Notes under the pieces: model-generated | The model's input: the letters and a program-made list of their open reading frames with translations, nothing else | Databases searched by the model: none | Told to the model about the DNA's origin: nothing | Shown: piece by piece, positions 40,638 to 52,870 of the stretch | Layout: the number at the start of each line of letters is the position of its first letter | How positions within the stretch are numbered: the stretch's first letter is position 1 | DNA from: Acidobacteriota bacterium | GTDB lineage: Bacteria; Acidobacteriota; UBA6911; RPQK01; JADFOI01 | Assembly: GCA_963663035.1 (NCBI GenBank) | Contig: OY760074.1 | Location: forward strand, 1,568,001-1,632,000 | DNA: 64,000 bases | Direction: 5' to 3' | Program-made: the position numbers and the translations under genes

Positions 40638-41735
40638 TTATCTTATCCGGTAGTTTCTGGCCTGTTCGCGAACCTGCTCAACGTCGAAATCATTGGCACA
40701 CTCCACCACTTCGTTGCTGTACAACGACCTCACCAACTCGTCGGTCACCTCACCTTCCAAACCCATCAGCTCGACAATTTTCATCCACTCTTCATGACTG
40801 TAAGCCCCGTGCTTTTTTACCAGCTCGTCGCTGGGATCCCACTTGTACATTCTCGAGCGCATCACGGCCAGTGAAAATTGCAGGGCCTGCTCTTCGCTGA
40901 CCCCGGTCGGTTTGGACTCGGGATAGACCTTCCAGTGGATGTGGATGGCGGCTTCCGGATTCTCGAAGGCGAACTCGACTCCTTTGGCGAGCCCGCGAAC
41001 GTAGGCACAGACCTCCTTTCGGTTCGTCCTCAAGTAATCCCGGCGAACGAACAGCCCTCCCTGAAAGTAAGAGTCCATATATTCCGTGTCTGGAAGGTAG
41101 CGGTACTGTGCCCCAACCTGCTCCATGGCGGCCAGGATGGTATCGGACTGGATCAGAGCATCGATCTGACCCTGCTGCAGCAGTGCGGTCGAGCTGGGAC
41201 CCGTGCCCACAGCCACAATGTCCACATCATTCTCAGGATCAATCCCCAGGCTCATCAGGATTCCCTTGGCATAGGAGGTACTGGCAGCGGCAAGACTCAG
41301 GGTGCCAAGAGTTTTCCCCTTCACATCCTGGATGGTCTTGATGGGACTGTCAGGCAGAACCACCCAGCTGAAGATGGGGTCTCGGTTCTGGTTGAAGATC
41401 AGAACGATCCCAGCATCCCTGCCCTGGGAGGCGTTCAGGAGCATTGTCTCGGCGCCAATGTAGCCGATTTCGGACCGACCCGAAGCGACCAGCGGAACCG
41501 AGCGCCCACCTCCGCCCAAGGGCGTGACCTCTACATCGATACCCCCTTCTGCGAAGTAGCCCATCTCCTTGGCAATACTGGTTTGGGCAAGCAGCGGATC
41601 GATTTGAGGAGCGCCCAGCGCCCAGCGTAGAATCTTCAGCGACTCGCCCTCCTGTCCCACAACCGAAGTGCAGGTCAGGATCAAAACCAACACTCCAATC
41701 AGGCATGAGATGTTCGGCAACATTTTAGGTTTCAA
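40638..41735 (-). CDS. ABC transporter substrate-binding protein, NitT/TauT (SsuA/THI5) family
   Basis: Signal peptide; AKEMGYFAEGGIDVE, DVKGKTLG and LQQGQIDA motifs. Confidence 0.88.
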   Translation of the reverse strand: MKPKMLPNISCLIGVLVLILTCTSVVGQEGESLKILRWALGAPQIDPLLAQTSIAKEMGYFAEGGIDVEVTPLGGGGRSVPLVASGRSEIGYIGAETMLLNASQGRDAGIVLIFNQNRDPIFSWVVLPDSPIKTIQDVKGKTLGTLSLAAASTSYAKGILMSLGIDPENDVDIVAVGTGPSSTALLQQGQIDALIQSDTILAAMEQVGAQYRYLPDTEYMDSYFQGGLFVRRDYLRTNRKEVCAYVRGLAKGVEFAFENPEAAIHIHWKVYPESKPTGVSEEQALQFSLAVMRSRMYKWDPSDELVKKHGAYSHEEWMKIVELMGLEGEVTDELVRSLYSNEVVECANDFDVEQVREQARNYRIR

Positions 41736-41782
41736 GTTCCATCCCTCCTTTGTCAGTTGTCAGCTGTCAGTTGTCAGTGGTT

Positions 41783-42979
41783 TCAGAATGAATCCACCAC
41801 AATCGGCTCCATGGGATAACGATGGAGACTTTCGGCACCATTCTCCGTCACCAGACACAGATCTCCAAGAAAAATACCGCTCGTTCCGTCCTGCGTGCTG
41901 GGATTGGGCTCAATGACCACGGTATGTCCTTTTTCAAAGGTGCAGCTCTGTATGGGATGGGCTGAACCCTTGACGCCCATGATGGGAGGCTCAATAAAGT
42001 TTCCCCATCCGTGTAACAGCGGAGCCTTGACGGTCAGACCGGCATCCAGAATCGGTTGGGCCCCCTCCTGAACTTCTTTCTCCGTGCTCCCCGGTCGAAG
42101 GGTTGACAGAACCCTCTCGAAGACTTCCTGGCCAATCTGGAAGAGCTTTTCGTAGTGTGGAGTGGGCTTGCCGACAAAGACAGTTCTCAGAATCTGGCCG
42201 GAGTAGCCCCCATAGGCGGAGCTGTGCTCACTCATGATCACGTCGCCCCTGACAATCGCTCGATCCGACATGTAGGCATCGGGAAACGCCATGCCCGGAT
42301 TCTCCATCGCAGTAGACCCCAGCAGAGCAAAGCACAACGTACCTCCCGCTCGATGTGTCTCGACCAGAATCTCATCATACAGGTCGATATTCCTGGCGCC
42401 TGGTTGGACGGCCCTCACATAGGCCTCCAGAGACTGATCGGTCAACTGTGCGCCCTTTCGAAGGAACTCGATCTCCTCATCAGATTTGATGCGGCGCAGA
42501 TTCTCGATCAGATCAGTGGCGATTTCAAATTCGGCCTGGGGAAGCGATTGCGTGATCCGAGCATATTGTTCCTGGGGAATCGACACCCGCCTTGCCGAGC
42601 TCACCCCCACGATTCCAATTCTTCCCTTCTCCATTCCCTTCTCTTTTAAAAGCTCCACCACCTTTTCATCGACTTTTAGCCCGCCGAATCGGATGTCCTC
42701 AACTGCCGAAATCTCCTTCCCTGTGGCAATGTGACCATTAAAGCTGGTTGCCAGTGTCGCCTCACCTTTTTTCGGAAAGATACAGTAAGCCTGGAACTGA
42801 TCTACGAAGTTGGTCACGTAGCGCAGATTGGCCTCTCCCGGATCGCTCCCGAAAGAGCAGTAGGCGCCGTACACAAGAAGACAATCGAACTGTCGAGCCT
42901 CCATCTCGTGGCGGATCCTCTGCCAGCGGTTTTGATATTCCTGATCACTGAACTGCGGGAAATGAACTCGCTTGACCAT
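41783..42979 (-). CDS. M24 (Xaa-Pro peptidase/creatinase fold) hydrolase
   Basis: Creatinase_N (FSDQEY..R..RI, NLRYVTN), R.IKSDEEI and a pita-bread domain; start MVKRV at 42979. Confidence 0.85.
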   Translation of the reverse strand: MVKRVHFPQFSDQEYQNRWQRIRHEMEARQFDCLLVYGAYCSFGSDPGEANLRYVTNFVDQFQAYCIFPKKGEATLATSFNGHIATGKEISAVEDIRFGGLKVDEKVVELLKEKGMEKGRIGIVGVSSARRVSIPQEQYARITQSLPQAEFEIATDLIENLRRIKSDEEIEFLRKGAQLTDQSLEAYVRAVQPGARNIDLYDEILVETHRAGGTLCFALLGSTAMENPGMAFPDAYMSDRAIVRGDVIMSEHSSAYGGYSGQILRTVFVGKPTPHYEKLFQIGQEVFERVLSTLRPGSTEKEVQEGAQPILDAGLTVKAPLLHGWGNFIEPPIMGVKGSAHPIQSCTFEKGHTVVIEPNPSTQDGTSGIFLGDLCLVTENGAESLHRYPMEPIVVDSF

Positions 42980-42993
42980 CGGCTCCACCTCCT

Positions 42994-43791
42994 TCAAAGC
43001 CCAATCACGTCTCTGCTGCGGGAGGTCCAGAACACCACCCGGCGCTCGATGAACTGCATGGCGAGATAAAAAGCAATCCCAATCACCGAAAGAACGATAA
43101 ACACGGAGAACACTCCCTGCATGTCCATGTTGAAATTCATTTGCAGAATCAGGATTCCGAGACCATGCCTTCCGCCGATAAACTCTCCCACAATCGCCCC
43201 GATCAGGCTGTAGACGATGGCCATACTGAGACCTGCGAAAATAAAGGGAAGAGCACTTGGAAATCGTACCTTGCGGAAGATCTGCCAAGGGGTGGCTTTG
43301 AAGGAGCGCATCATCTCCAGACGATCAGGGTCCACAGACTCAAATCCTGCGATGGAATTGACCAGGAGCGGAAAAAAGGTGAGCATGGCCACAATCACGA
43401 CCTTGGAAGTCATTCCCACGCCGAACCAAACAATTAAAAGAGGTGCCAGGGCGACTTTGGGGAGACTCTGAAAGGCTACGATATAGGGCAAAAACACCTT
43501 TCCCACAAATCGGCTCTGCGCAATCAAGGTACCCAGAATCATTCCCGAACCGCTCCCGAGGAGAAATCCCAAGAGAGCCTCACTGACCGTATAGTAGGTG
43601 TGAAGATAAAAGCCCACACGGCTTGTCAGGCTCTGGGCAAGGCCCCTCTGGAGGGACACCAGCACTCCACTGGGCGGCGGCAGGAGAAAGAAGGGGACCT
43701 CGAGATATTTCACAGTCACCTCCCAAATCACAAGGAGCACCACCAGAAGCCCGATGCTGTAGACCCACTCTCTTGTCAACAGTCGTTTCAT
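42994..43791 (-). CDS. ABC transporter permease, NitT/TauT family
   Basis: LLPPPS, QSLPKVALAPL, FPSALPFIF and GAIVGEF motifs. Confidence 0.92.
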   Translation of the reverse strand: MKRLLTREWVYSIGLLVVLLVIWEVTVKYLEVPFFLLPPPSGVLVSLQRGLAQSLTSRVGFYLHTYYTVSEALLGFLLGSGSGMILGTLIAQSRFVGKVFLPYIVAFQSLPKVALAPLLIVWFGVGMTSKVVIVAMLTFFPLLVNSIAGFESVDPDRLEMMRSFKATPWQIFRKVRFPSALPFIFAGLSMAIVYSLIGAIVGEFIGGRHGLGILILQMNFNMDMQGVFSVFIVLSVIGIAFYLAMQFIERRVVFWTSRSRDVIGL

Positions 43792-43802
43792 TCGATCCCT
43801 CC

Positions 43803-44017
43803 TAGCCGGGACTATGAATAAGTTTTCGTGACGAAGTGCCGCAGGCGCCGCGATGACAAGGCGTGCGAGGGGTACCCGCTTGCGGGTCGTGCCCCGCAGG
43901 CGTACTCTTGCAGTACGCCGAGGAGCCTAAGGGGTACCTGCTTTGCGGGTCGCACAACGCAGTCAGCGTGGATGTTTGCGGCACTGCAGTAGAAAACCTA
44001 TGCATAATCCCGGCTTA
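43803..44017. mobile_element. MITE-like element, family 1
   Basis: TIRs TAGCCGGGACTATG / CATAATCCCGGCT; nearly identical to 63680-63891. Confidence 0.85.
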
Positions 44018-44782
44018 ATCCTCCTTGATGCCAAGCAAGGAGCGGATCCGCTTGGACAGTTTCCCGAATGCCTCGGTCTGCATCAGGTCGAGACGACGAG
44101 GCCTTGGCAAGTCGACTTGAACAGTGTCCGCCAGCCGACCCGGACGGGGCGTTAGAGCCACCACCCGGTCGGACAGAAAGATCGCTTCCGAGATACTGTG
44201 AGTGACAAAGAGAACCGTCTTACCACTCTTGCTCCAGATGCGGAGCAGTTCCAGATTCATGGACTCACGCGTCATTGCGTCCAGGGCTCCAAAGGGTTCA
44301 TCCATCAGGAGCACATCGGGCTCGTAGACCAGTGCCCGGGTGATGGAGACCCGCTGCTGCATACCTCCGGAAAGCTCAAAGGGGTATCGATCAGCAAAGC
44401 CTGTGAGGCCCACCATATCCAAAATTTCATGGGCGCGCTCTCGGTACTGGTCAAGGGGCAAGCCCATCACCTCGATGGGGAGCATGGTGTTCTCAAGCAC
44501 CGTCCTCCAGGGAAGAAGGACCGGCTGCTGGAAGACAAATCCGATGTCCCTTCGAGGACCCTCAACTGACGATCCACCGATGAGGACTTCACCACCGCTC
44601 CTGGGGATGAGACCCGCCACGATTTTCAGCAGTGTGGTTTTACCGCAGCCACTGGTTCCCACAATAGAGACAAATTCGCCCTTGGCGATATCGAAAGAGA
44701 CATCCTGGAGCGCCAACAGATCTTCATCCTGCAGGGTTCTATACGACTTCGTGACCTGTCGCAGCTCTATAAAGGAAGGCAT
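44015..44782 (-). CDS. ABC transporter ATP-binding protein, NitT/TauT family
   Basis: GTSGCGKTT, LSGGMQQR and MDEPFGALD motifs. Confidence 0.95.
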   Translation of the reverse strand: MPSFIELRQVTKSYRTLQDEDLLALQDVSFDIAKGEFVSIVGTSGCGKTTLLKIVAGLIPRSGGEVLIGGSSVEGPRRDIGFVFQQPVLLPWRTVLENTMLPIEVMGLPLDQYRERAHEILDMVGLTGFADRYPFELSGGMQQRVSITRALVYEPDVLLMDEPFGALDAMTRESMNLELLRIWSKSGKTVLFVTHSISEAIFLSDRVVALTPRPGRLADTVQVDLPRPRRLDLMQTEAFGKLSKRIRSLLGIKED

Positions 44783-44831
44783 GTATTTTGAGAGTAGCGC
44801 GCTTCGCTCCCAGAAAAAAGGGAAAAAAGAA

Positions 44832-44922
44832 GGAGGCAGGAGTCAGGAGACAGGAGTCAGAAGATCTTTTCAATCTGAGATACGCGCGAAGCGCACCTCC
44901 TACCTCCTGCCTCCTGCCTCCT
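44832..44922. repeat. Inverted heptamer repeat arrays (GGAGRCA / CCTCCTR)
   Basis: AGGAGGCAGGAGTCAGGAGACAGGAGTCAG facing CCTCCTACCTCCTGCCTCCTGCCTCC. Confidence 0.75.
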
Positions 44923-44967
44923 TCTTTCCCCATGTTATACTTCCACCGGCGCAGACGGAGGGAGACC

Positions 44968-45228
44968 ATGAGCGCGGTTCAAATAGATTTTTTTACAAGG
45001 CCCGGTTGCCATCTTTGTCACGAGGCCCTGGACGTTCTGAAAAGGCTCCAGAAAGACTTTGACTTCGAGATCCGAAGTGTCAACATCTCTGAATCGGCCG
45101 AGTTCGCTGCACTCTACCAAGACAGCATCCCCGTCGCCACCCTAAATGGGAGAGCCATCCTCAAACACCGAGCTGACGAAAAAATGCTGCGGCGAATCCT
45201 CAGCCGCCAGATGGTAGCCGCAGAATGA
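44968..45228 (+). CDS. Glutaredoxin-like protein (DUF836-type)
   Basis: TRPGCHLC (CxxC) and IPV cis-Pro motifs; GGAG SD. Confidence 0.85.
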   Translation: MSAVQIDFFTRPGCHLCHEALDVLKRLQKDFDFEIRSVNISESAEFAALYQDSIPVATLNGRAILKHRADEKMLRRILSRQMVAAE

Positions 45229-45629
45229 AGTGGCTCAAGCACGCTTTTGCCACGGATCCGCCGGGACCGGCCAAACCGGACGAGACACAGCGCGTCCTCC
45301 TCGAGAAGCTGTGCCGGGAGGTGGTTCGTCGCCACCTGACCACGCCCGTGCTGTTGATGCTGGAAACGAGTCGGCCATTGAACTATGTTTCGGCTCAGCT
45401 CCTGCACTATCTCCAGCCGATCGTCTCGATTCTTGCCGACACGGCCAACTATCAGAAACTCACTGCATTTTTGGAACAACGCGGATCGATCGATTACGTC
45501 TATCAGCGACTGGAAGCCATCGAGACCGAATACCGTGGTCAAACAAAGCAAGGCGATGAGCCTGCGACCGAAGGCGACCCGCCAGCAGGCACCCCAAGTA
45601 CCGCAGGTACCACAAATACCCGGAAATGA
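45225..45629 (+). CDS. Conserved hypothetical protein
   Basis: VVRR.LTTP.LL.LE..RPLNY..AQ motif; ATGA-coupled on both sides. Confidence 0.75.
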   Translation: MKWLKHAFATDPPGPAKPDETQRVLLEKLCREVVRRHLTTPVLLMLETSRPLNYVSAQLLHYLQPIVSILADTANYQKLTAFLEQRGSIDYVYQRLEAIETEYRGQTKQGDEPATEGDPPAGTPSTAGTTNTRK

Positions 45630-47455
45630 AAGAGATCGACCCTGACAAGATTCGCGTGATCCTGGCCACCGACTGCGGCAGTACCACAACCAAGGCGATC
45701 CTCATCCAAAAGATCGACGGCGTTTACCGCCAGACCCACCGGGGCGAAGCTCCAACCACCGTTGAAGCGCCCTTCGCGGACGTCACCATGGGCGTGGTCA
45801 ATGCTGTCACTGAAACTCAGGAACTCGCCGACCGGCGGCTGGTCGACGAGGACGGCAGAATCATCCAACCGGCGGAGGAGGAAGGCTGCGACCTCTACAT
45901 TTCCACTTCGAGCGCGGGTGGCGGGTTGCAGATGATGGTCGCAGGCGTGATTCGCGAAATGACCGCAGAGAGTGCAAAGCGCGCCGCCCTGGGCGCGGGC
46001 GCGATCGTGATGGACGTCATAGCTTCCAATGACAAACGCCGGCCTCACGAGCAGATCCAGCGCATCCGTGAGCTGCGCCCGGACATGATCCTGATCTCGG
46101 GAGGGATCGACGGAGGCACGACCACCCACGTGGTCCAGATCGCCGAGCTGATTCCTCCAGCCAATCCGCGGCCCAGATTCGGCAGCGAGTACAGGCTTCC
46201 CATCATCTACGCCGGCAATAAAGATGCTGCAGCGCTCGTTGAGGAGATCATCAGCGCCGGCTTTGACCTGACCATTGTGGATAACCTGCGGCCGGTCTTG
46301 GAGCGCGAAAACCTGGGTCCGGCGCGTGATGCCATTCACGATCTGTTCCTGGAGCACGTCATGGCGCATGCACCCGGCTATGACAAGCTCATGCAAACAA
46401 CTGATGCGCCCATCATGCCGACACCCGGTGCCGTCGGCAATATCCTGCAAACCATCGCCAGCCAAAAAGGAATCAATGTCGTTGGCGTGGATATCGGTGG
46501 CGCGACCACCGACGTATTCAGCGTCTTTGACGGCACCTTCAATCGGACAGTCAGCGCAAACCTGGGCATGAGCTACTCCATCTCCAACGTGTGTGCGGAG
46601 GCCGGCATGCCCAGCATCTTGCGCTGGATTCACTTCGATATGGATGAGCGCGAGTTGCGCAACCGCGTCAAGAACAAAATGATCCGACCGACCACGATCC
46701 CGCAGACACTGGAGGCTCTTGTCTTCGAGCAGGCGGTGGCCCGCGAAGCATTGCGGCTGGCCTACCAACAGCACCAAGCCTTCGCCACTACTCTCAAGGG
46801 CGTGCAGCGGCAGCGTACTGTGGGCGACACCTTCACCCAGGAGAGTTCCGGCCAGACCATCGTCGACAACATGAAGCTCGACCTGCTGGTCGCGTCCGGT
46901 GGGGTACTTTCACACGCTCCCGACATGCGCCAGACGGCGATGATGCTGATTGACGCCTTTCAGCCGGAAGGATTTACCGAGCTGGCCAAAGACTCCATTT
47001 TCATGATGCCCCATCTGGGAGTGCTGGCAGCGGTGCACCCTCAGGCATCACTGGAGGTCTTTGAGCGCGACTGTCTGGTCAATCTGGGTACCACGGTCGC
47101 CGCAAAGGGTCTGGCCAAGCTCGGCCGGCCCTGCTTTCGATACTCGATCCGTTCAGCGGCGCTCAACGAATCTGGCCAGCTGAACTTCGGAGAAGTTCGT
47201 CTCTTTTCCCTGGGCCCGGACGAGACGGCCTCGGTGAGCATCCAACCCGAGCGGAGCTTCGACTGTGGTGGCGGAGCTGGTAAGGACATCGAACGCGAAG
47301 TACGCGGGGGAACGGTCGGGCTGATCCTGGATGCCCGCGGGCGGCCACTGGTCATTCCGGACAAGCCTGAGGAGGGACGAGAGTTGCTTGAAAAATGGGT
47401 CTCGGCCCTGGAACTATATCCTGAAATCCAGAGGGCTCCACTGCAGAAGGAATAG
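45626..47455 (+). CDS. Glutamate mutase L (GlmL/MutL)-like ASKHA/actin-fold ATPase
   Basis: Phosphate-1 DCGSTTTK, SSAGGGLQM, SGGIDGG, PTPGAV, phosphate-2 VDIGGATTDVFS, RTVSANLGM and SGGVLSH motifs. Confidence 0.8.
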   Translation: MKEIDPDKIRVILATDCGSTTTKAILIQKIDGVYRQTHRGEAPTTVEAPFADVTMGVVNAVTETQELADRRLVDEDGRIIQPAEEEGCDLYISTSSAGGGLQMMVAGVIREMTAESAKRAALGAGAIVMDVIASNDKRRPHEQIQRIRELRPDMILISGGIDGGTTTHVVQIAELIPPANPRPRFGSEYRLPIIYAGNKDAAALVEEIISAGFDLTIVDNLRPVLERENLGPARDAIHDLFLEHVMAHAPGYDKLMQTTDAPIMPTPGAVGNILQTIASQKGINVVGVDIGGATTDVFSVFDGTFNRTVSANLGMSYSISNVCAEAGMPSILRWIHFDMDERELRNRVKNKMIRPTTIPQTLEALVFEQAVAREALRLAYQQHQAFATTLKGVQRQRTVGDTFTQESSGQTIVDNMKLDLLVASGGVLSHAPDMRQTAMMLIDAFQPEGFTELAKDSIFMMPHLGVLAAVHPQASLEVFERDCLVNLGTTVAAKGLAKLGRPCFRYSIRSAALNESGQLNFGEVRLFSLGPDETASVSIQPERSFDCGGGAGKDIEREVRGGTVGLILDARGRPLVIPDKPEEGRELLEKWVSALELYPEIQRAPLQKE

Positions 47456-47500
47456 CGTTCGATGAATCTCAATTCGTCTGATTGGACTGGTTAAGGATTG

Positions 47501-48628
47501 ATGGCAAAAGCGTACACACCTGGACTCAAGGTTTCAGCTCATGGGCGGCATCGTGCCCGCCGGATTCTCCCCATCAAGGGAGAAGTTCGAGTGGAGGTTG
47601 GAGAACATCTCCTCCCACAGCAAGTGGTCGCCGAGACCTTCATGCCCGGCGAGGTCACACCGCTGAACATGGCCAACCTTCTTTCCCTACCGCCCGCTGA
47701 CGTTCCCGAGTGCATGCTCAAGAAGGAAGGCGACCGCATTTCAGTGGGTGACGCCTTGGCCCGCACCAAAGGCATCTTCGGTAGGTTCCGCAGTGAATAC
47801 CTCTCCAAAGTCGAGGGAACTATAGAGTCGATCTCCTCGGTGACCGGACAGGTCATTGTGCGGGGTGAACCGATGCCCCTGCAGGTCCATGCATACCTGG
47901 CCGGCAGCGTCGTCGAGGTTCTGCCCGGAGAGGGTTGCGTGATTGAAGCGAGCGCCTCTTTCATTCAGGGCATATTCGGGATCGGCGGGGAGACCTTCGG
48001 TCCGATCCGCCTGGCGGTAGCGAGCCACGATCAGGCTCTGACCGACGACCTGATCGGGCCGGACATGAAGGACGCGGTGGTCGTCGGCGGTGCGCGCTTG
48101 ACCGAGCAGGCCCTGGAGAAAGCTCGTACTGTCGGCGTCTCCGCCGTCGTCTCCGGTGGTATCGACGACCAGGACCTCAAAAAGTTCCTCGGTTACGACC
48201 TGGGCGTGGCCATTACCGGCTCGGAAGATGTTGGCCTCACCTTGATCGTCACCGAGGGCTTCGGAGATATTGCCATGGCCGAGCGTACCTTTAACCTTCT
48301 GGCGTCGCGCCAAGGCGCCGACGCGGCGGTCAACGGTACAACCCAGATTCGAGCGGGTGTCCTGAGGCCTGAGATCGTCATCCCCTGGACGGACGGGGAG
48401 AAGGCAGACGAGACTGTCTCGACGGAGTCGGCAGGATATCTGGAGATCGGCGTTCAGGTGCGAGTCATTCGCGATCCCTACTTCGGAAAAATCGGCTCGG
48501 TAAGCGCGTTGCCGCCTGAACCGCAAGTGCTGGAATCGGGCTCCAAGGCCAGGGTGCTCGAGGTTCAGTTCGATTCCGGTGAAGATGTTATAATCCCGCG
48601 AGCCAACGTTGAACTAATCGAAGGATGA
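47501..48628 (+). CDS. Uncharacterised protein with tandem barrel-sandwich-hybrid (biotinyl/NqrA-RnfC N-term-like) motifs and a C-terminal KOW-like domain
   Basis: GEVRVEVGE...QVVA, KKEGDRISVGDALA...SKVEGTIESI and C-terminal GVQVRVIRDPYFGKIGSV motifs. Confidence 0.7.
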   Translation: MAKAYTPGLKVSAHGRHRARRILPIKGEVRVEVGEHLLPQQVVAETFMPGEVTPLNMANLLSLPPADVPECMLKKEGDRISVGDALARTKGIFGRFRSEYLSKVEGTIESISSVTGQVIVRGEPMPLQVHAYLAGSVVEVLPGEGCVIEASASFIQGIFGIGGETFGPIRLAVASHDQALTDDLIGPDMKDAVVVGGARLTEQALEKARTVGVSAVVSGGIDDQDLKKFLGYDLGVAITGSEDVGLTLIVTEGFGDIAMAERTFNLLASRQGADAAVNGTTQIRAGVLRPEIVIPWTDGEKADETVSTESAGYLEIGVQVRVIRDPYFGKIGSVSALPPEPQVLESGSKARVLEVQFDSGEDVIIPRANVELIEG

Positions 48629-48632
48629 GTCC

Positions 48633-49811
48633 ATGAGAGGGCACTTCACCTTAGCTGTCGTGTGTGGGTTGGGGGTACTGGTGCTCCCGGCCGCGGGACA
48701 GACTCCGGCACCAGCGGCACCCACTGAGCTGACTGCGGCGGATCGGCCCTGGGACAACGGGACCCGCATCGATCTGAGTTGGTCCCTCTCGAGCGACGAC
48801 GCGGCGCTCCAGGGGTACATCATCCGCAGGAGGGCCGGGGAAGATCCCGAGTTCGCCCGTGTGGACCTGGTAGGACCTGGTACCAGCCAGTTCACTGTCA
48901 CAGATCTCAGTCCGGAGGAAACCTATCTCTTCCAGGTCGCCGCCATTGCCCAGGACAACACCGAGTCCTTACCTGCCCTCACCAACGCGCCCATTACCCC
49001 CTCGATGGAATGGTTTGACGGCACACGGGTGTGGTTTCTGCTCACGCTGGTGATCTTCTGCGGGGCGGTAGTGGTGTTCATCGGGAGGGCGCGAAAGGGT
49101 GCCACACTGAAGCTCCGCAAGATCGCGGGTCTGGAGGCAGTCGACGAAGCCGTGGGACGGGCCACCGAAATGGGCCGCTCCTGTCTCTTCATTCCCGGCA
49201 TCGCCGACATAAATGACATTCAGACCATCGCAGCCATGAACATCCTGGGGAGAGTGGCCAGGACTGCAACCGAGTACGATGCCAAGCTGGAGGTACCGAC
49301 CAGCAAGTCCCTGGTCATGACCATGGCTCGTGAAACCGTGCAGACGGCGTTTCTTTCAGCCGGCCGGCCCGACGCCTTCAATCCCGATGCGATTTACTAC
49401 GTGACCGATGAGCAGTTCGGTTACGTGGCCTACCTCCAGGGCATGATGGTTCGCGAAAAGCCGGCGGCTTGCTTCTACATGGGCTCTTTCTACGCCGAAT
49501 CGCTGATTCTCGCCGAGATGGGGAACGCCGTGGGCGCGATCCAGATTGCCGGGACCGCTCAGCCGGCCCAGCTGCCGTTTTTCGTGGCGGCCTGCGATTA
49601 CACGCTGATCGGCGAAGAGTTCTTTGCCGCCTCGGCCTATCTGTCCGGTGAGCCGGACCAACTGGGCAGCCTGAAAGGCCAGGACGTGGGCAAGCTCATT
49701 GTAGCGGCGGGCATCGTGGGCGGCGTCCTTGCCTCCACGCTGGCCGTAGTGACCGGTTCGTCCCTGATTCAGTCACTGGTGGATTTCTTCATGGAGACGA
49801 TGCTGAGCTAA
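48633..49811 (+). CDS. Exported fibronectin-III domain + TM + DUF6754-like domain protein
   Basis: Signal peptide, FN3 (LSW...GYII.R...LSPEETYLFQV.A), TM, RKIAGLEAVDEAVGRATEMG and YTLIGEEFFAASAYLS motifs, C-terminal TM. Confidence 0.7.
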   Translation: MRGHFTLAVVCGLGVLVLPAAGQTPAPAAPTELTAADRPWDNGTRIDLSWSLSSDDAALQGYIIRRRAGEDPEFARVDLVGPGTSQFTVTDLSPEETYLFQVAAIAQDNTESLPALTNAPITPSMEWFDGTRVWFLLTLVIFCGAVVVFIGRARKGATLKLRKIAGLEAVDEAVGRATEMGRSCLFIPGIADINDIQTIAAMNILGRVARTATEYDAKLEVPTSKSLVMTMARETVQTAFLSAGRPDAFNPDAIYYVTDEQFGYVAYLQGMMVREKPAACFYMGSFYAESLILAEMGNAVGAIQIAGTAQPAQLPFFVAACDYTLIGEEFFAASAYLSGEPDQLGSLKGQDVGKLIVAAGIVGGVLASTLAVVTGSSLIQSLVDFFMETMLS

Positions 49812-49815
49812 CTAA

Positions 49816-50514
49816 ATGAAGCGGTCTGTTCCACTCCTGATCACAGCCTTGGGCGGATTCGTCCTCATCGCCGCTTACTTTATCCCGTATACGCAGAGCT
49901 GGGGCGAGAGTGTCGCCGTCTGGTTCGATATTCTGGCGTCGATCGCGTTCATCCTGGGCGGCGGCAACCTGCTGAAGCTGCACCTGAAGAAGGTGTACGA
50001 TCAGGTTCCCGGCTGGGGCTATTCCCTGATCGTACTAGTTGCCTTTCTGTTAACACTCACGGTCGGCCTGGGCAAGATGGGCGTGCAGCCGTCGGCGCAG
50101 TTTACGGACTTCGCCTGGTCGGGCCATTACCGGGAAATCGGCAGTCCCTTCTGGTTTCTCTACCAGTACGGGTTCCAACCGCTGACCGCAACAATGTTCG
50201 CCCTGCTGGCCTTCTACATTGCATCGGCTGCCTTCAGGGCCTTTCGTGCCAAGAACCTGGAAGCCGTCCTGTTGCTGGGCACAGCCTTCATCATACTGCT
50301 GGGAAGGACCTTTGCAGGGGTTGCCCTGACAGGTTGGATCCCTCCCGACAGCGCTTTCAGCGGGCTGCGCGTGGAAAACCTGACCGTCTATATCATGAGC
50401 GTGTTCAACACCATAGGAAACCGGGCGATCATGATCGGAATCGCCCTGGGCATTGTCTCGGTCTCGCTGAAGGTACTGCTGGGCGTGGACCGTTCCTACT
50501 TGGGCAAGGAGTAG
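49816..50514 (+). CDS. Uncharacterised integral membrane protein (~6-7 TM)
   Basis: Hydrophobic protein with PL.ATMFALLAFYIASAAFRAFRA and RAIMIGIALG motifs. Confidence 0.8.
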   Translation: MKRSVPLLITALGGFVLIAAYFIPYTQSWGESVAVWFDILASIAFILGGGNLLKLHLKKVYDQVPGWGYSLIVLVAFLLTLTVGLGKMGVQPSAQFTDFAWSGHYREIGSPFWFLYQYGFQPLTATMFALLAFYIASAAFRAFRAKNLEAVLLLGTAFIILLGRTFAGVALTGWIPPDSAFSGLRVENLTVYIMSVFNTIGNRAIMIGIALGIVSVSLKVLLGVDRSYLGKE

Positions 50515-50518
50515 CAAG

Positions 50519-51484
50519 ATGGGCGACTTCCTCATACAGCAGTGGTGGCTACCGATCGTGATTGTTGGCTCCCTGCTGCCCCTCATCAAGCAGATAGCCG
50601 GCCAGGGCCTCGGCGCCACCCTCCAGTCACTGGATCGCCGCTGGATCTTTCTGCTCATGCTGTGGGCCGTTCTGGTGCCTATCTACTTCATTGGCCTCAC
50701 CGGCCTAACCTTCCCCGAAGTCCCGGGCGAACTGGCCCAGGCCACCTTCAACGAGATTGAGAGGCTCCAGGAAGGCGATCCCATCCTGCTGTCGTTTGAC
50801 TTCGACCCGGCCAGCGAAGGCGAGCTGGGTCCGATGGCGACCGCCTTTGTGAAGCACGCTGCCTCCAAAAAGCTCAAGATGTACTTCATGGCACTTTGGC
50901 CAGTCGGTCCACAAATGATCGACGATGCGATCAACGACGTCATCCGCTCCGACTACCCGGAAATGGTCTACGGTGAGGACTATGTCAACCTCGGCTTCAA
51001 GTCGGGCGGAGAAGGCGTCATCAAGGTCATCGTCACCAACCTGCGGGAGCTGTACACGACAGACAGTCGGGGCACGGCCGTTCAGAACATTCCGATGATG
51101 ACCGGTATCGAAAACATCCAGCAGATGGAGCTGATCATCAACGTCTCTGCAGGCTACCCCGGAACCAAAGAGTGGGTGCAGTACGCCTCGACGCCCTACC
51201 CGGATCGTATCCGGCTGGTGGCGGGGGCTACCGGGGTGCAGGCGCCGCTACTCTATCCCTACATTCCCAGCCAGCTGCCAGGGCTGCTGGGAGCCATCAA
51301 GGGTGCTGCCGAATACGAGAAGCTGGTGGTCGACAAGTACGGTGGCCCGAACCCCGATCCCAAATACCTGGAGGGCCTTCGCCGCATGGGTCCGCAGCTG
51401 GTCGCCCACCTGCTCATCATCATCCTGATCGTGGTGGCGAATGTCCTCTACTTCGTCGGCCTCAAGCAAGAGGCGCGCCCATGA
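50519..51484 (+). CDS. Uncharacterised membrane-anchored protein with a large alpha/beta soluble domain
   Basis: DRRWIF + TM, FDFDPAS.GEL.PM, YG.DYVNLGF and QL.GLLG.IKGAAEYE motifs, C-terminal TM. Confidence 0.8.
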   Translation: MGDFLIQQWWLPIVIVGSLLPLIKQIAGQGLGATLQSLDRRWIFLLMLWAVLVPIYFIGLTGLTFPEVPGELAQATFNEIERLQEGDPILLSFDFDPASEGELGPMATAFVKHAASKKLKMYFMALWPVGPQMIDDAINDVIRSDYPEMVYGEDYVNLGFKSGGEGVIKVIVTNLRELYTTDSRGTAVQNIPMMTGIENIQQMELIINVSAGYPGTKEWVQYASTPYPDRIRLVAGATGVQAPLLYPYIPSQLPGLLGAIKGAAEYEKLVVDKYGGPNPDPKYLEGLRRMGPQLVAHLLIIILIVVANVLYFVGLKQEARP

Positions 51485-52401
51485 AGCGGGAAACAACGGT
51501 TTGGCTGATACTCATGCTGTTGGGCGCCGCCGGTCTCATCGGGCGGGCCGCCTTCACCTCCCCGGGCATGGGCCGGGAATACGTGCAGGCCGTGTCCATC
51601 GCTGACGGCCAGCGGACACAATACCAGCAGGCAACCTTTGCGCAGTACCAGGGAGCCCTGGCCGCCGATTCGAACCAGACTGAATTCCTCTTTAGCCTGC
51701 CTCGCACGATCGGACTGTGGATCGCAGCCTTCTTCACGCTGGCCATCTTCTCTTTCCTCTATAGAGACAATCCCTTTTACCGAGCGGCCGAGTCCATTGT
51801 GGTTGGCGTCTCGGCCGGTTACTGGATGGTGGTCGGCTTCTGGGACGTGCTGGTACCCAACCTGTTCGGCAAGATTTTACCCGAAGTGGTCCAGGCCACA
51901 GCCATGCCAGGCCTCAGCGGACCAGAGGCGGAGCGCAACCTCTCGTATGTCATCCCGCTGGTCCTGGGCATTATGCTGCTGTGGCGGCTTTCGCCCAAGG
52001 GTGCCTGGATCTCCCGCTGGCCGTTGGCTTTTATCATCGGGACCACCGCCGGGCTGAGAATGATCGCGTTTTTGCACGGCGACTTTCTCGCCCAGATTCG
52101 CAACTCCATCCTGCCCCTGGTCGTGATCAACCAGGGGGCTTTCGACTTCTCAGCGTCGCTGACCAACCTGATAATGTTGGTCGGCGTGCTCTGCTGTCTC
52201 ACCTACTTTTTCTTCTCCTTCGAGCACAAGGGTGTTGTGGGGGGCGCGGCCAAGGTGGGTATCTGGATCTTGATGATTACTTTCGGTGCCGCCTTCGGCT
52301 ACACGGTCATGGGACGTATTGCGCTGCTGGCCATCCGCCTTGAGTTTCTACTCGATGACTGGCTCTGGCTGATCGATCCGCTCGGGAGACGTCTGCTGTA
52401 A
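51481..52401 (+). CDS. Uncharacterised integral membrane protein (~7 TM)
   Basis: Start MKRET at 51481 (ATGA overlap); TLAIFSFLYRDNP.YR.AE, LTYFFFS.EH and MITFGAAFGYTVMGR motifs. Confidence 0.8.
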   Translation: MKRETTVWLILMLLGAAGLIGRAAFTSPGMGREYVQAVSIADGQRTQYQQATFAQYQGALAADSNQTEFLFSLPRTIGLWIAAFFTLAIFSFLYRDNPFYRAAESIVVGVSAGYWMVVGFWDVLVPNLFGKILPEVVQATAMPGLSGPEAERNLSYVIPLVLGIMLLWRLSPKGAWISRWPLAFIIGTTAGLRMIAFLHGDFLAQIRNSILPLVVINQGAFDFSASLTNLIMLVGVLCCLTYFFFSFEHKGVVGGAAKVGIWILMITFGAAFGYTVMGRIALLAIRLEFLLDDWLWLIDPLGRRLL

Positions 52402-52409
52402 GCAGAAGA

Positions 52410-52436
52410 TGGGGGGCGGCGTCCCTCCACTTTTTC
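52410..52436 (+). terminator. Possible intrinsic terminator of the 44968-52401 operon
   Basis: GC-rich hairpin TGGGGGGCG-GCG-TCCCTCCA followed by a T6 run. Confidence 0.4.
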
Positions 52437-52870
52437 TAGCGAATACCCGTGATGTAGTTCTCAAGCTGAGAGATCACGAACTCCTGCTCAGAGATGACGG
52501 CCTTGACCACGTCCCCGATGGAGATCACGCCAACCAACTTCTCGTCTTCCAGGACAGGCAGATGCCGGATACGTCTATCCGTCATAAGGGCCATACACTC
52601 TTCAATGGTCTGGTCGGTGCGAACACAGGACACCCGGCGGCTCATGATTTCTCCAATGGTCGTGCCCCGGGAAGTTTTCCCCTTCAAAACCACCTTCCTG
52701 GCGTAATCCCTTTCTGAAAAAATACCCACCAGATCATCCCCGTCCAGCACGAGCAGGGCCCCGATGCGGTGCTCATCCATAAGCTGCAGGGCGTCATACA
52801 CCGAGGTATCGGGTCTGGCGGACCACAGATCGTGGCCTTTGGTTTGCAATAGCTGCCGGATGGTGTTCAT
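52436..52870 (-). CDS. CBS-domain pair protein
   Basis: GIFSERDYARKV, IRHLPV and ISIGDVVK motifs. Confidence 0.92.
   Translation of the reverse strand: MNTIRQLLQTKGHDLWSARPDTSVYDALQLMDEHRIGALLVLDGDDLVGIFSERDYARKVVLKGKTSRGTTIGEIMSRRVSCVRTDQTIEECMALMTDRRIRHLPVLEDEKLVGVISIGDVVKAVISEQEFVISQLENYITGIR

Follow-up and report, generated by a model that had tools for sequence, protein, structure and literature searches.

Positions 44968 to 52401 of the 64,000-nucleotide stretch analysed here, which comes from contig OY760074.1 of an Acidobacteriota bacterium and is referred to below as the window, carry eight genes, g1 to g8, of which seven (g2 to g8) form a conserved module around an ATPase of the MutL/GlmL family. 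These seven genes very probably constitute one functional system unrelated to the reactivation of coenzyme B12-dependent mutases. The reading favoured here is that of a self-contained, horizontally mobile seven-gene module; more tentatively, its composition points to an undescribed ATP-coupled machine of the inner membrane, most likely an importer.

The module was delimited by comparison with related loci. A scan for g3, the ATPase gene, across one genome per species confirmed 539 relatives; the 80 best loci, in which g3 is 73-94% identical to that of the window, were searched with the eight window proteins using tblastn. Among the 54 loci extending at least 5.5 kb downstream and at least 0.5 kb upstream of g3, g2 to g8 are all present, colinear and on one strand in 50, an arrangement far beyond chance. 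The phylum labels of the loci are Planctomycetota (54), Acidobacteriota (11), Fidelibacterota (3), Gemmatimonadota (2) and, with one locus each, Verrucomicrobiota, Eiseniibacteriota and Thermodesulfobacteriota, giving seven labels altogether. A first-pass annotation of the same DNA had spoken of six core genes within the operon; conserved synteny across phyla is found, with a core that comprises seven genes rather than six or the full eight. The four loci without a complete colinear set (L036, L011, L060 and L072) come from genomes that all retain DUF6754, the defining domain of g5, which lies on another contig in L060 and L072, where g3 stands alone. The same gene order recurs in a divergent clade represented by eight further regions of the Planctomycetota sample, in which g3 is 57-62% and the membrane subunits 30-44% identical to those of the window.

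The association between the ATPase and the membrane proteins extends beyond gene order. Co-occurrence was counted in a sample of 301 genomes from the phylum of genome G427 (the Planctomycetota sample), with g3 orthologues taken at E ≤ 1e-60; these are mostly draft metagenome-assembled genomes (MAGs), in which related genomes are not independent, and the counts are given without a statistical test. DUF6754 is found in 79 of them and a g3 orthologue in 80, both occurring together in 76, DUF6754 only in three, g3 only in four and neither in 218. In several genomes, including closed or long assemblies, the ATPase and DUF6754 are encoded on separate contigs or at distances of hundreds of kb and both have been retained, such that the pairing outlasts the loss of linkage. 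Within the module, the g5-g6-g7-g8 block is present as a tandem duplicate behind a single g2-g3-g4 in L106, and L105 likewise has a double g5-g8 block, in a fetched stretch that does not include g2-g4; the duplication of the block identifies the four genes as one unit. Fusions link further components. Genes g3 and g4 are joined into a single polypeptide in L042, L065 and L067, with fusions of this type found under Planctomycetota, Neomarinimicrobiota and Gemmatimonadota labels, and 48 of the 49 g4 homologues longer than 659 amino acids (aa) carry a MutL domain; among these 48 are two fragments cut at the N-terminus and a distant form that matches NQRA_N and Biotin_lipoyl. The fusions imply that g3 and g4 act together, and g4 is regarded as an obligate partner of the ATPase. 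In one database protein, P0166, g4 reads through into g5, with the signal peptide of g5 becoming a first transmembrane (TM) helix in a topologically consistent manner. Owing to the synteny, the genome-level co-occurrence even of unlinked genes and the fusions, comparative evidence indicates that the soluble unit (g2, g3 and g4) is functionally bound to the four-subunit membrane unit (g5 to g8). The earlier suggestion that the ATPase powers or regulates a membrane complex is upheld as regards this functional tie; that it powers the complex goes a step further, and is treated as conditional below.

The ATPase itself, g3 (45626-47455, 609 aa), matches the MutL family PF13941 over residues 12-483 at 427.9 bits (cut-off 27), placing it in the MutL/GlmL superfamily within the ASKHA (actin/Hsp70-fold) clan, and it is the sole PF13941 gene in its own genome. 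The two motifs that the first-pass annotation had described as intact, DCGSTTTK (D16-K23, phosphate-1) and DIGGATTD (D289-D296, phosphate-2), are both present and, together with an SGG motif, are invariant in 24 of 24 orthologues; across these sequences, which originate from several phyla, mean column identity is 78%. Such invariant nucleotide-binding motifs suggest that g3 is ATPase-competent. The protein shares its ASKHA domain and phosphate motifs with GlmL/MutL, component L of coenzyme B12-dependent glutamate mutase, and with Or-4 of the ornithine aminomutase operon. By contrast with these, it is around 125 aa longer at the C-terminus, in an extension beyond the family domain that is less conserved, is never beside glmS or glmE in the loci compared here and has fixed partners in g4 and four membrane proteins. 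Nor is it a member of the curated families: it scores 229.2 bits against the GlmL equivalog NF040745 (cut-off 475), 210.4 bits against the Or-4 model NF040744 (cut-off 600) and, over residues 91-479 only, 167.7 bits against TIGR01319, glmL_fam (cut-off 204.05). JGI records nonetheless name close homologues of g3 as 'TIGR01319 family'. Relatives of g3 within PF13941 and the GlmL family are presented as chaperone-like in PMC4682846, and by analogy g3 probably shares their mode of ATP-driven conformational action.

The partner protein g4 (47498-48628, 376 aa), for which the orthologue consensus favours an ATG at 47501 over the start at 47498, had been described as soluble with tandem hybrid motifs. 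Its structural model (predicted local distance difference test, pLDDT, 84.7) has three parts: an N-terminal barrel-sandwich hybrid, in agreement with that description, and in addition a swivelling beta/beta/alpha domain (approximately residues 153-301) and a KOW/SH3-like domain (approximately residues 314-376), which the description had not included. Foldseek returned domain-level KOW and MccF/LdcA-like matches alone, at E values of about 1e-2 to 1e-4, and Pfam at E ≤ 10 gave two chance-level matches (E 0.28-0.39). Sub-threshold similarity to PF00364 (Biotin_lipoyl) is seen in 22 of 24 orthologues, with a best E value of 2.8e-5, the window protein scoring 11 bits against a cut-off of 22.1. A function as lipoyl or biotinyl carrier is not borne out by the alignment, as no lysine is strictly conserved (K91 in 19/24 and K98 in 20/24), and inspection by eye of the flank families present in four or more of the 50 complete loci singled out no gene for a lipoate-dependent enzyme; similarly, the phosphohistidine swivel domain of phosphoenolpyruvate-utilising enzymes and phosphotransferase system Enzyme I requires a conserved phospho-acceptor histidine, and the only His, Lys or Cys columns reaching at least 80% are K11, K98 and K350.

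Two groups of known proteins combine comparable parts. The DdrAB reactivase of diol dehydratase and the EutA reactivase of ethanolamine ammonia-lyase are ASKHA-fold ATPases, and DdrA possesses a swivelling domain. The module resembles them in that a swivelling beta/beta/alpha domain accompanies an ASKHA ATPase, g3 and g4 supplying the two parts either as separate proteins or as a fusion, and differs from DdrA and EutA in that neither g3 nor g4 has a match to these families and no B12 enzyme lies in the neighbourhood; DdrA chains are absent from the 50 best structural matches listed for g4. Similarly, weak matches to RnfC_N (18/24 orthologues) and NQRA_N (3/24, best E 3.4e-5) at the N-terminus of g4, and the position of a soluble subunit gene beside genes for small polytopic membrane subunits, recall the Rnf and Nqr complexes. 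Unlike RnfC and NqrA, g4 matches through its N-terminal domain only and is devoid of FMN, NADH and Fe-S domains; no NqrA or RnfC chain is among the 50 structural matches listed, an absence that carries no weight by itself, g6-g8 do not match the Rnf-Nqr family at E ≤ 10, and g6 and g8 are without a conserved cysteine.

The third soluble component, g2 (45225-45629, 134 aa), lies upstream of g3 in 71 of the 80 loci and consists of a conserved core of around 100 aa followed by a variable acidic, low-complexity tail, its alignment having 38% mean column identity and nine invariant positions. An ATGA overlap with g3 suggests that the two are translationally coupled. Hydropathy gives zero TM segments for g1-g4.

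The membrane half of the module is composed of four proteins, the topologies of which were assigned from hydropathy and positive-inside (K/R) counts over 24 orthologues. Their general character, one exported protein with fibronectin type III (FN3), TM and DUF6754-like parts, two polytopic proteins and one membrane-anchored protein, had been recognised in the first-pass annotation. Within g5 (48633-49811, 392 aa), a signal peptide is followed by an extracytoplasmic FN3 domain (fn3, 31.2 bits), a TM helix, a cytoplasmic alpha/beta DUF6754 domain and a second TM helix; the match to DUF6754 (PF20539), a family lacking a described function, is full-length, scoring 407.5 bits (cut-off 27) over profile positions 2-253 of 257. 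Proteins with this domain range from forms of 280-286 aa, without an ectodomain, to others of 1272-1312 aa; g5 lacks the ectodomain in L105 and L106, and of seven large ectodomains tested, none has a Pfam domain beyond DUF6754. The matches listed in a fold search with the g5 model are all to FN3 domains. Complex prediction of aligned g4 with g5 residues 152-354 gave a score of 0.00 in two runs, controls not having been folded, and this counts neither for nor against binding of the two.

The polytopic protein g6 (49816-50514, 232 aa) has around six TM helices with both termini inside and a mean column identity of 70%. Its family numbers 2454 representatives at E ≤ 0.001, many of them with an insert of 100-390 aa in the TM3-TM4 loop; one of ten such homologues tested for domains has an FHA domain, the others nothing of note. 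Long 'g6' open reading frames in L059, L070 and L073 were considered as DUF6754-g6 fusions and rejected, as PF20539 is found in none of the three, which match the loop-insert forms. The protein g7 (50519-51484, 321 aa) has a conserved domain of around 230 aa between two TM helices, with 46 invariant positions that include an acidic FDFDP motif. Its tails are K/R-rich, with a median of three such residues each over a median of 12 aa at the N-terminus and 8 aa at the C-terminus, placing the conserved domain probably on the extracytoplasmic side. This motif and the Ser/Thr, Lys and Glu positions farther along would be reminiscent of a HAD-like phospho-acceptor site, but Pfam gives no HAD match for g7 at E ≤ 10. 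A proposed paralogy with the DUF6754 domain of g5 was discarded, hhalign giving a probability of 3.8% over the TM stretch only. The last protein, g8 (51481-52401, 306 aa), is polytopic with around seven TM helices, and its start overlaps the g7 stop; its invariant residues include D96, E104, R193, H249, R279 and R286. Neither g6 nor g8 has a conserved cysteine, and both possess conserved charged residues, among them arginines that lie within hydrophobic stretches.

No described system accounts for this combination. Four of the core proteins, g2, g6, g7 and g8, have no Pfam match even at E ≤ 10, and a sequence-level ESM Atlas search linked g7 and g8 to 'hypothetical' clusters alone. Comparison of the g3 protein and of g4 and g7 profiles with PDB sequences gave nothing below an E value of 0.1, and PADLOC-DB 2.0 anti-phage models matched none of the eight proteins at E ≤ 0.01. 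Literature searches with DUF6754, PF13941, TIGR01319 and glutamate mutase L, to which subscription journals were mostly inaccessible, returned no description of the cluster; PMC5167688 deals with true glutamate mutase and DNA-repair MutL rather than with these genes. The earlier remark that no characterised system is known to have this architecture is consistent with the lack of any PDB, PADLOC, Rfam, Atlas or literature match naming one. With four core families outside Pfam, g4 below threshold, DUF6754 without a function and g3 failing three curated models, the cluster appears on this evidence to be undescribed.

The genomic position of the module provides a lead to its function. The first gene of the operon, g1 (44968-45228, 86 aa), encodes the CxxC glutaredoxin-like (DUF836) protein identified in the first-pass annotation (PF05768, Glrx-like, 65.6 bits). 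The gene does not belong to the conserved module: among the 80 loci, g1 occurs only in L005, the closest. Two congeners, G003 and G005, lack DUF6754 but keep the flanks, with 72-73% identity in an M48 peptidase, 83% in the glutaredoxin-like protein, 80% in a CBS protein and 92% in PntB. The 3.7 kb that separate g1 from the CBS gene in these genomes code for a binding protein of the SBP_bac_5 family and for a pair of BPD_transp_1 permeases, of which one has OppC_N, and the start of the OppA-like gene overlaps the g1 stop, as that of g2 does in the window; the own genome of the window has no equivalent of this OppA-like protein at E ≤ 1e-20. Hence g2-g8 sits in place of an Opp/Dpp-type peptide ATP-binding cassette (ABC) importer, and g1, being kept in congeners without the module, is a resident gene heading whichever cassette follows. 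The adjacent block upstream (40638-44782), consisting of an NMT1-type ABC importer and an M24 peptidase, is shared by the window and G003 and missing from G005, in which the M48 peptidase directly precedes the glutaredoxin-like gene (compared loci L111 and L112); this variability among congeners marks the locus as a variable transporter island.

A working model can be proposed for such a machine. Hydrolysis of ATP by g3 would provide a conformational rather than a chemical drive, as GlmL-, EutA- and DdrA-type relatives are thought to do for their client enzymes. The change may be relayed by the swivelling and KOW/SH3-like domains of g4 to the cytoplasmic DUF6754 domain of g5, the high conservation of which would suit a docking point, and could then pass to the permease-like g6 and g8, forming the path through the membrane. 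Cargo might be bound on the outer side, by the conserved domain of g7 together with the variable ectodomains that g5 and g6 carry. The module would thus be a primary importer in which an actin/Hsp70-fold ATPase takes the role of the ABC ATPase, and it would take up organic nutrients, with peptides or amino acid-derived compounds as the leading guess. Import is favoured on three grounds: how the module is built, the fact that an Opp/Dpp-like cassette can stand in its place after g1, and the peptidase and importer genes nearby. The first-pass annotation had offered a transporter, an exporter or a sensing complex, and the peptide ABC cassette in the same slot of congeners inclines the choice towards an importer. 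That the module is a transporter or importer is rated somewhat below an even chance.

Such a machine would resemble ABC importers of the Opp/Dpp type in having two polytopic subunits, a conserved domain that faces outwards and an ATPase in the cytoplasm. It would differ from them in that the ATPase has the actin/Hsp70 rather than the P-loop fold, in the addition of two cytoplasmic proteins and of a subunit with DUF6754, and in the absence of ABC_tran, BPD_transp and SBP families from g2-g8 (Pfam and NCBIfam, at E ≤ 10 for g2, g4 and g6-g8). A bolder possibility, regarded as doubtful, is that the module represents a new class of primary active transporter or translocase, neither ABC, P-type nor rotary, in which an ASKHA motor acts through a swivel-domain adaptor. 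As part of that same doubtful proposal, exchangeable ectodomains of the four-subunit membrane unit would set cargo specificity, and the class may, with similar reservation, be widespread in uncultured Planctomycetota, Acidobacteriota, Marinimicrobia/Fidelibacterota and Gemmatimonadota.

A number of observations count against an ATP-driven importer. The link between the soluble and membrane units rests on gene order, co-occurrence and P0166, which is a single record from a single contig, ends inside DUF6754 and may be an assembly error, and those relatives of g3 that are known have soluble enzymes rather than membrane proteins as their clients. The structural model of g5 has low confidence (pLDDT < 50) in the conserved half of DUF6754, and K/R counts are the sole basis for locating the g7 domain outside the cell. 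Matches of g6 and g8 to known transporter families were found neither in Pfam at E ≤ 10 nor, for g8, in the ESM Atlas. The FHA domain mentioned above (P0191, E 1.1e-13) lies in a loop insert of g6 assigned to the outer face, which calls for additional membrane crossings within the insert or for a different topology, and it fits signalling better than transport. The families present in the flanks of at least five of the 50 complete loci are all lineage-specific and give no cross-phylum clue to a substrate, and no riboswitch was detected by Rfam in the window at E ≤ 1 or, at the gathering threshold, in 11 related loci (143 kb), the only match in the latter being one tRNA in L042. Finally, the replacement in the slot is a single event within a single genus, and the cassettes of a variable island need not be equivalent in function.

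The main rival, which is rather unlikely, is a mechanotransmission or envelope machine, in which ATP-driven movements of g3 and g4 would reach through the membrane to the outer domains of g5, g6 and g7 and serve to remodel, assemble, anchor or release periplasmic or surface material, in the manner of FtsEX- or MacB-type systems or Hsp70-type ratchets. The variable parts of the module are extracytoplasmic, with g5 ectodomains ranging from none to more than 1000 aa without a Pfam domain and the g6 inserts of 100-390 aa, and giant variable ectodomains are more suited to binding macromolecules or surfaces than small solutes; the chaperone-like relatives of g3, as set out in PMC4682846, would also be in keeping with such an activity. 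Against this, the otherwise complete modules of L105 and L106 have ectodomain-free g5 proteins, making the ectodomain dispensable for the core activity, the flank families of the 50 loci contain no peptidoglycan, lipoprotein, polysaccharide or pilus gene as a conserved neighbour, and the corresponding slot in the congeners holds an importer.

An improbable alternative is transmembrane sensing or signalling, with the variable ectodomains as ligand sensors and with g3 and g4 as the cytoplasmic output or regulator. The FHA domain of P0191 fits such a role, but genes for a kinase, receiver, HTH, GGDEF or similar output domain are found neither within the module or beside it in the window nor in the flank families that are frequent, g4 has no conserved histidine and, save for the three lysines named above, no His, Lys or Cys column reaching 80%, and four dedicated membrane subunits, all duplicated as a block, would be unusual for a sensor.

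Least probable is that g3 is a true GlmL-type reactivase or corrinoid factor for a B12 enzyme elsewhere in the genome, or that the module imports or loads cobamides: PF13941 does include the glutamate mutase chaperone as its described member (PMC4682846), and the own genome contains 13 matches to B12-binding domains, ten of them above cut-off, but g3 falls below the GlmL, Or-4 and TIGR01319 cut-offs, its conserved partners are membrane proteins and no cobalamin riboswitch was present in the Rfam searches described above. None of the 13 matches is inside the window, in line with the initial observation that it contains neither a mutase S or E subunit nor another B12 enzyme, and the nearest above cut-off is approximately 163 kb from the end of the cluster. 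Glutamate mutase E (PF06368) is missing from the whole of the own genome (3.59 Mb, 96.6% complete) and from five other carrier genomes under four phylum labels, and B12 genes are not found among the frequent flank families of the 50 loci. With PF06368 in none of six carrier genomes, the independence from glutamate mutase proposed in the first-pass annotation is borne out.

The distribution of the favoured seven-gene module among relatives of its host bears on its mobility. DUF6754 is found in four of 41 relatives (none of six from the same genus and none of 14 from the same family) and in eight of 401 genomes of the same phylum; a tblastn search with g5 gave no match to PLSDB plasmids. In an unrooted FastTree phylogeny of 77 g3 proteins, the window groups with seven rows labelled Acidobacteriota (support 95), and a second Acidobacteriota group of four is nested among Planctomycetota rows (support 97). 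Three of these four rows correspond, by their coordinates, to the other carrier family within the order to which the window belongs, and the rootless tree fits, without proving it, more than one acquisition of the module within this order. One copy in the Planctomycetota sample (G534:C20:254535-262453) is interrupted, by two TGA codons in DUF6754 and by one TGA and two TAA codons in g3, the latter being split into pieces, and is apparently a decaying module. A second, far more distant g3 paralogue, of 41-46% identity, accompanies the orthologue in several genomes (G509:C19, G445:C95, G458:C4, G580:C308, G490:C106, G713:C574 and G698:C37).

Other genes adjoin the module in parts of its range. 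An extra gene of around 170 codons overlaps the start of g2 in 21 of the 50 complete loci (for example, L013:9060-9572), those inspected being labelled Planctomycetota; its product has two TM helices and a weak match to the bacterial PH domain bPH_6 (E 0.023), and it has no counterpart in the window. Genes named by eye as plsX, fabH and fabD lie downstream of g8 in 8-10 of the 50 loci (L017, L013 and others), and kynurenine pathway-like genes and birA, likewise named by eye, lie upstream of the module in 5-7 of the 50. These look like lineage-specific synteny and not like a conserved functional link.

In the window, the eight open reading frames are all on the + strand, tightly packed and followed by a hairpin with a T-run, as initially noted. 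The g1/g2, g2/g3 and g7/g8 junctions are ATGA overlaps, and the remaining gaps are 42, 4, 4 and 4 bp. The operon is closed by a terminator-like GC-rich hairpin with a T-run (52410-52438, + strand), beginning 9 bp past the g8 stop, in which a stem of seven pairs, five of them GC (52410-52429), is followed by the tail CTTTTTCT. Genes on both flanking sides are on the opposite strand to the operon: upstream are those for an ABC importer (NMT1-type binding protein, permease and ATPase) and for M24 and M48 peptidases, and downstream are that for the CBS protein (52436-52870, opposite strand) and then the PntB/PntA transhydrogenase. Between g1 and the divergently oriented ABC ATPase gene lies a near-perfect hairpin of around 120 nt (44815-44936), with an RNA minimum free energy of -65 kcal/mol (z -7.6) and, in Rfam, only sub-threshold matches to microRNA precursors on both strands. 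Its arms are formed by a short purine/pyrimidine-rich unit with 154 matching places in the own genome, often in tandem arrays (for example, C1:461396-461857, 924984-925667, 1181841-1182135 and 1702333-1702660), and this unit is a dispersed intergenic repeat family.

If the proposed function is correct, the module would introduce a new energy-coupling principle for the cytoplasmic membrane, in which an actin/Hsp70-fold ATPase serves a dedicated four-subunit membrane complex. The system is common, judging by the 79 of 301 sampled Planctomycetota genomes with DUF6754 and the 2454 representative clusters of the g6 family, and it has remained unstudied because it is missing from model organisms, DUF6754 being found in none of the 14 model control genomes. 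Database entries for its ATPase routinely bear the erroneous names 'glutamate mutase L' or 'methylaspartate mutase', and metabolic reconstructions from MAGs may in consequence point wrongly to glutamate fermentation. The exchange between a peptide ABC cassette and the module within one genus offers a lead to the substrate class, and the 78% mean column identity of g3 across phyla implies strong constraint, suggesting that the module may be important to the ecology of these heterotrophs, most of which are uncultured.

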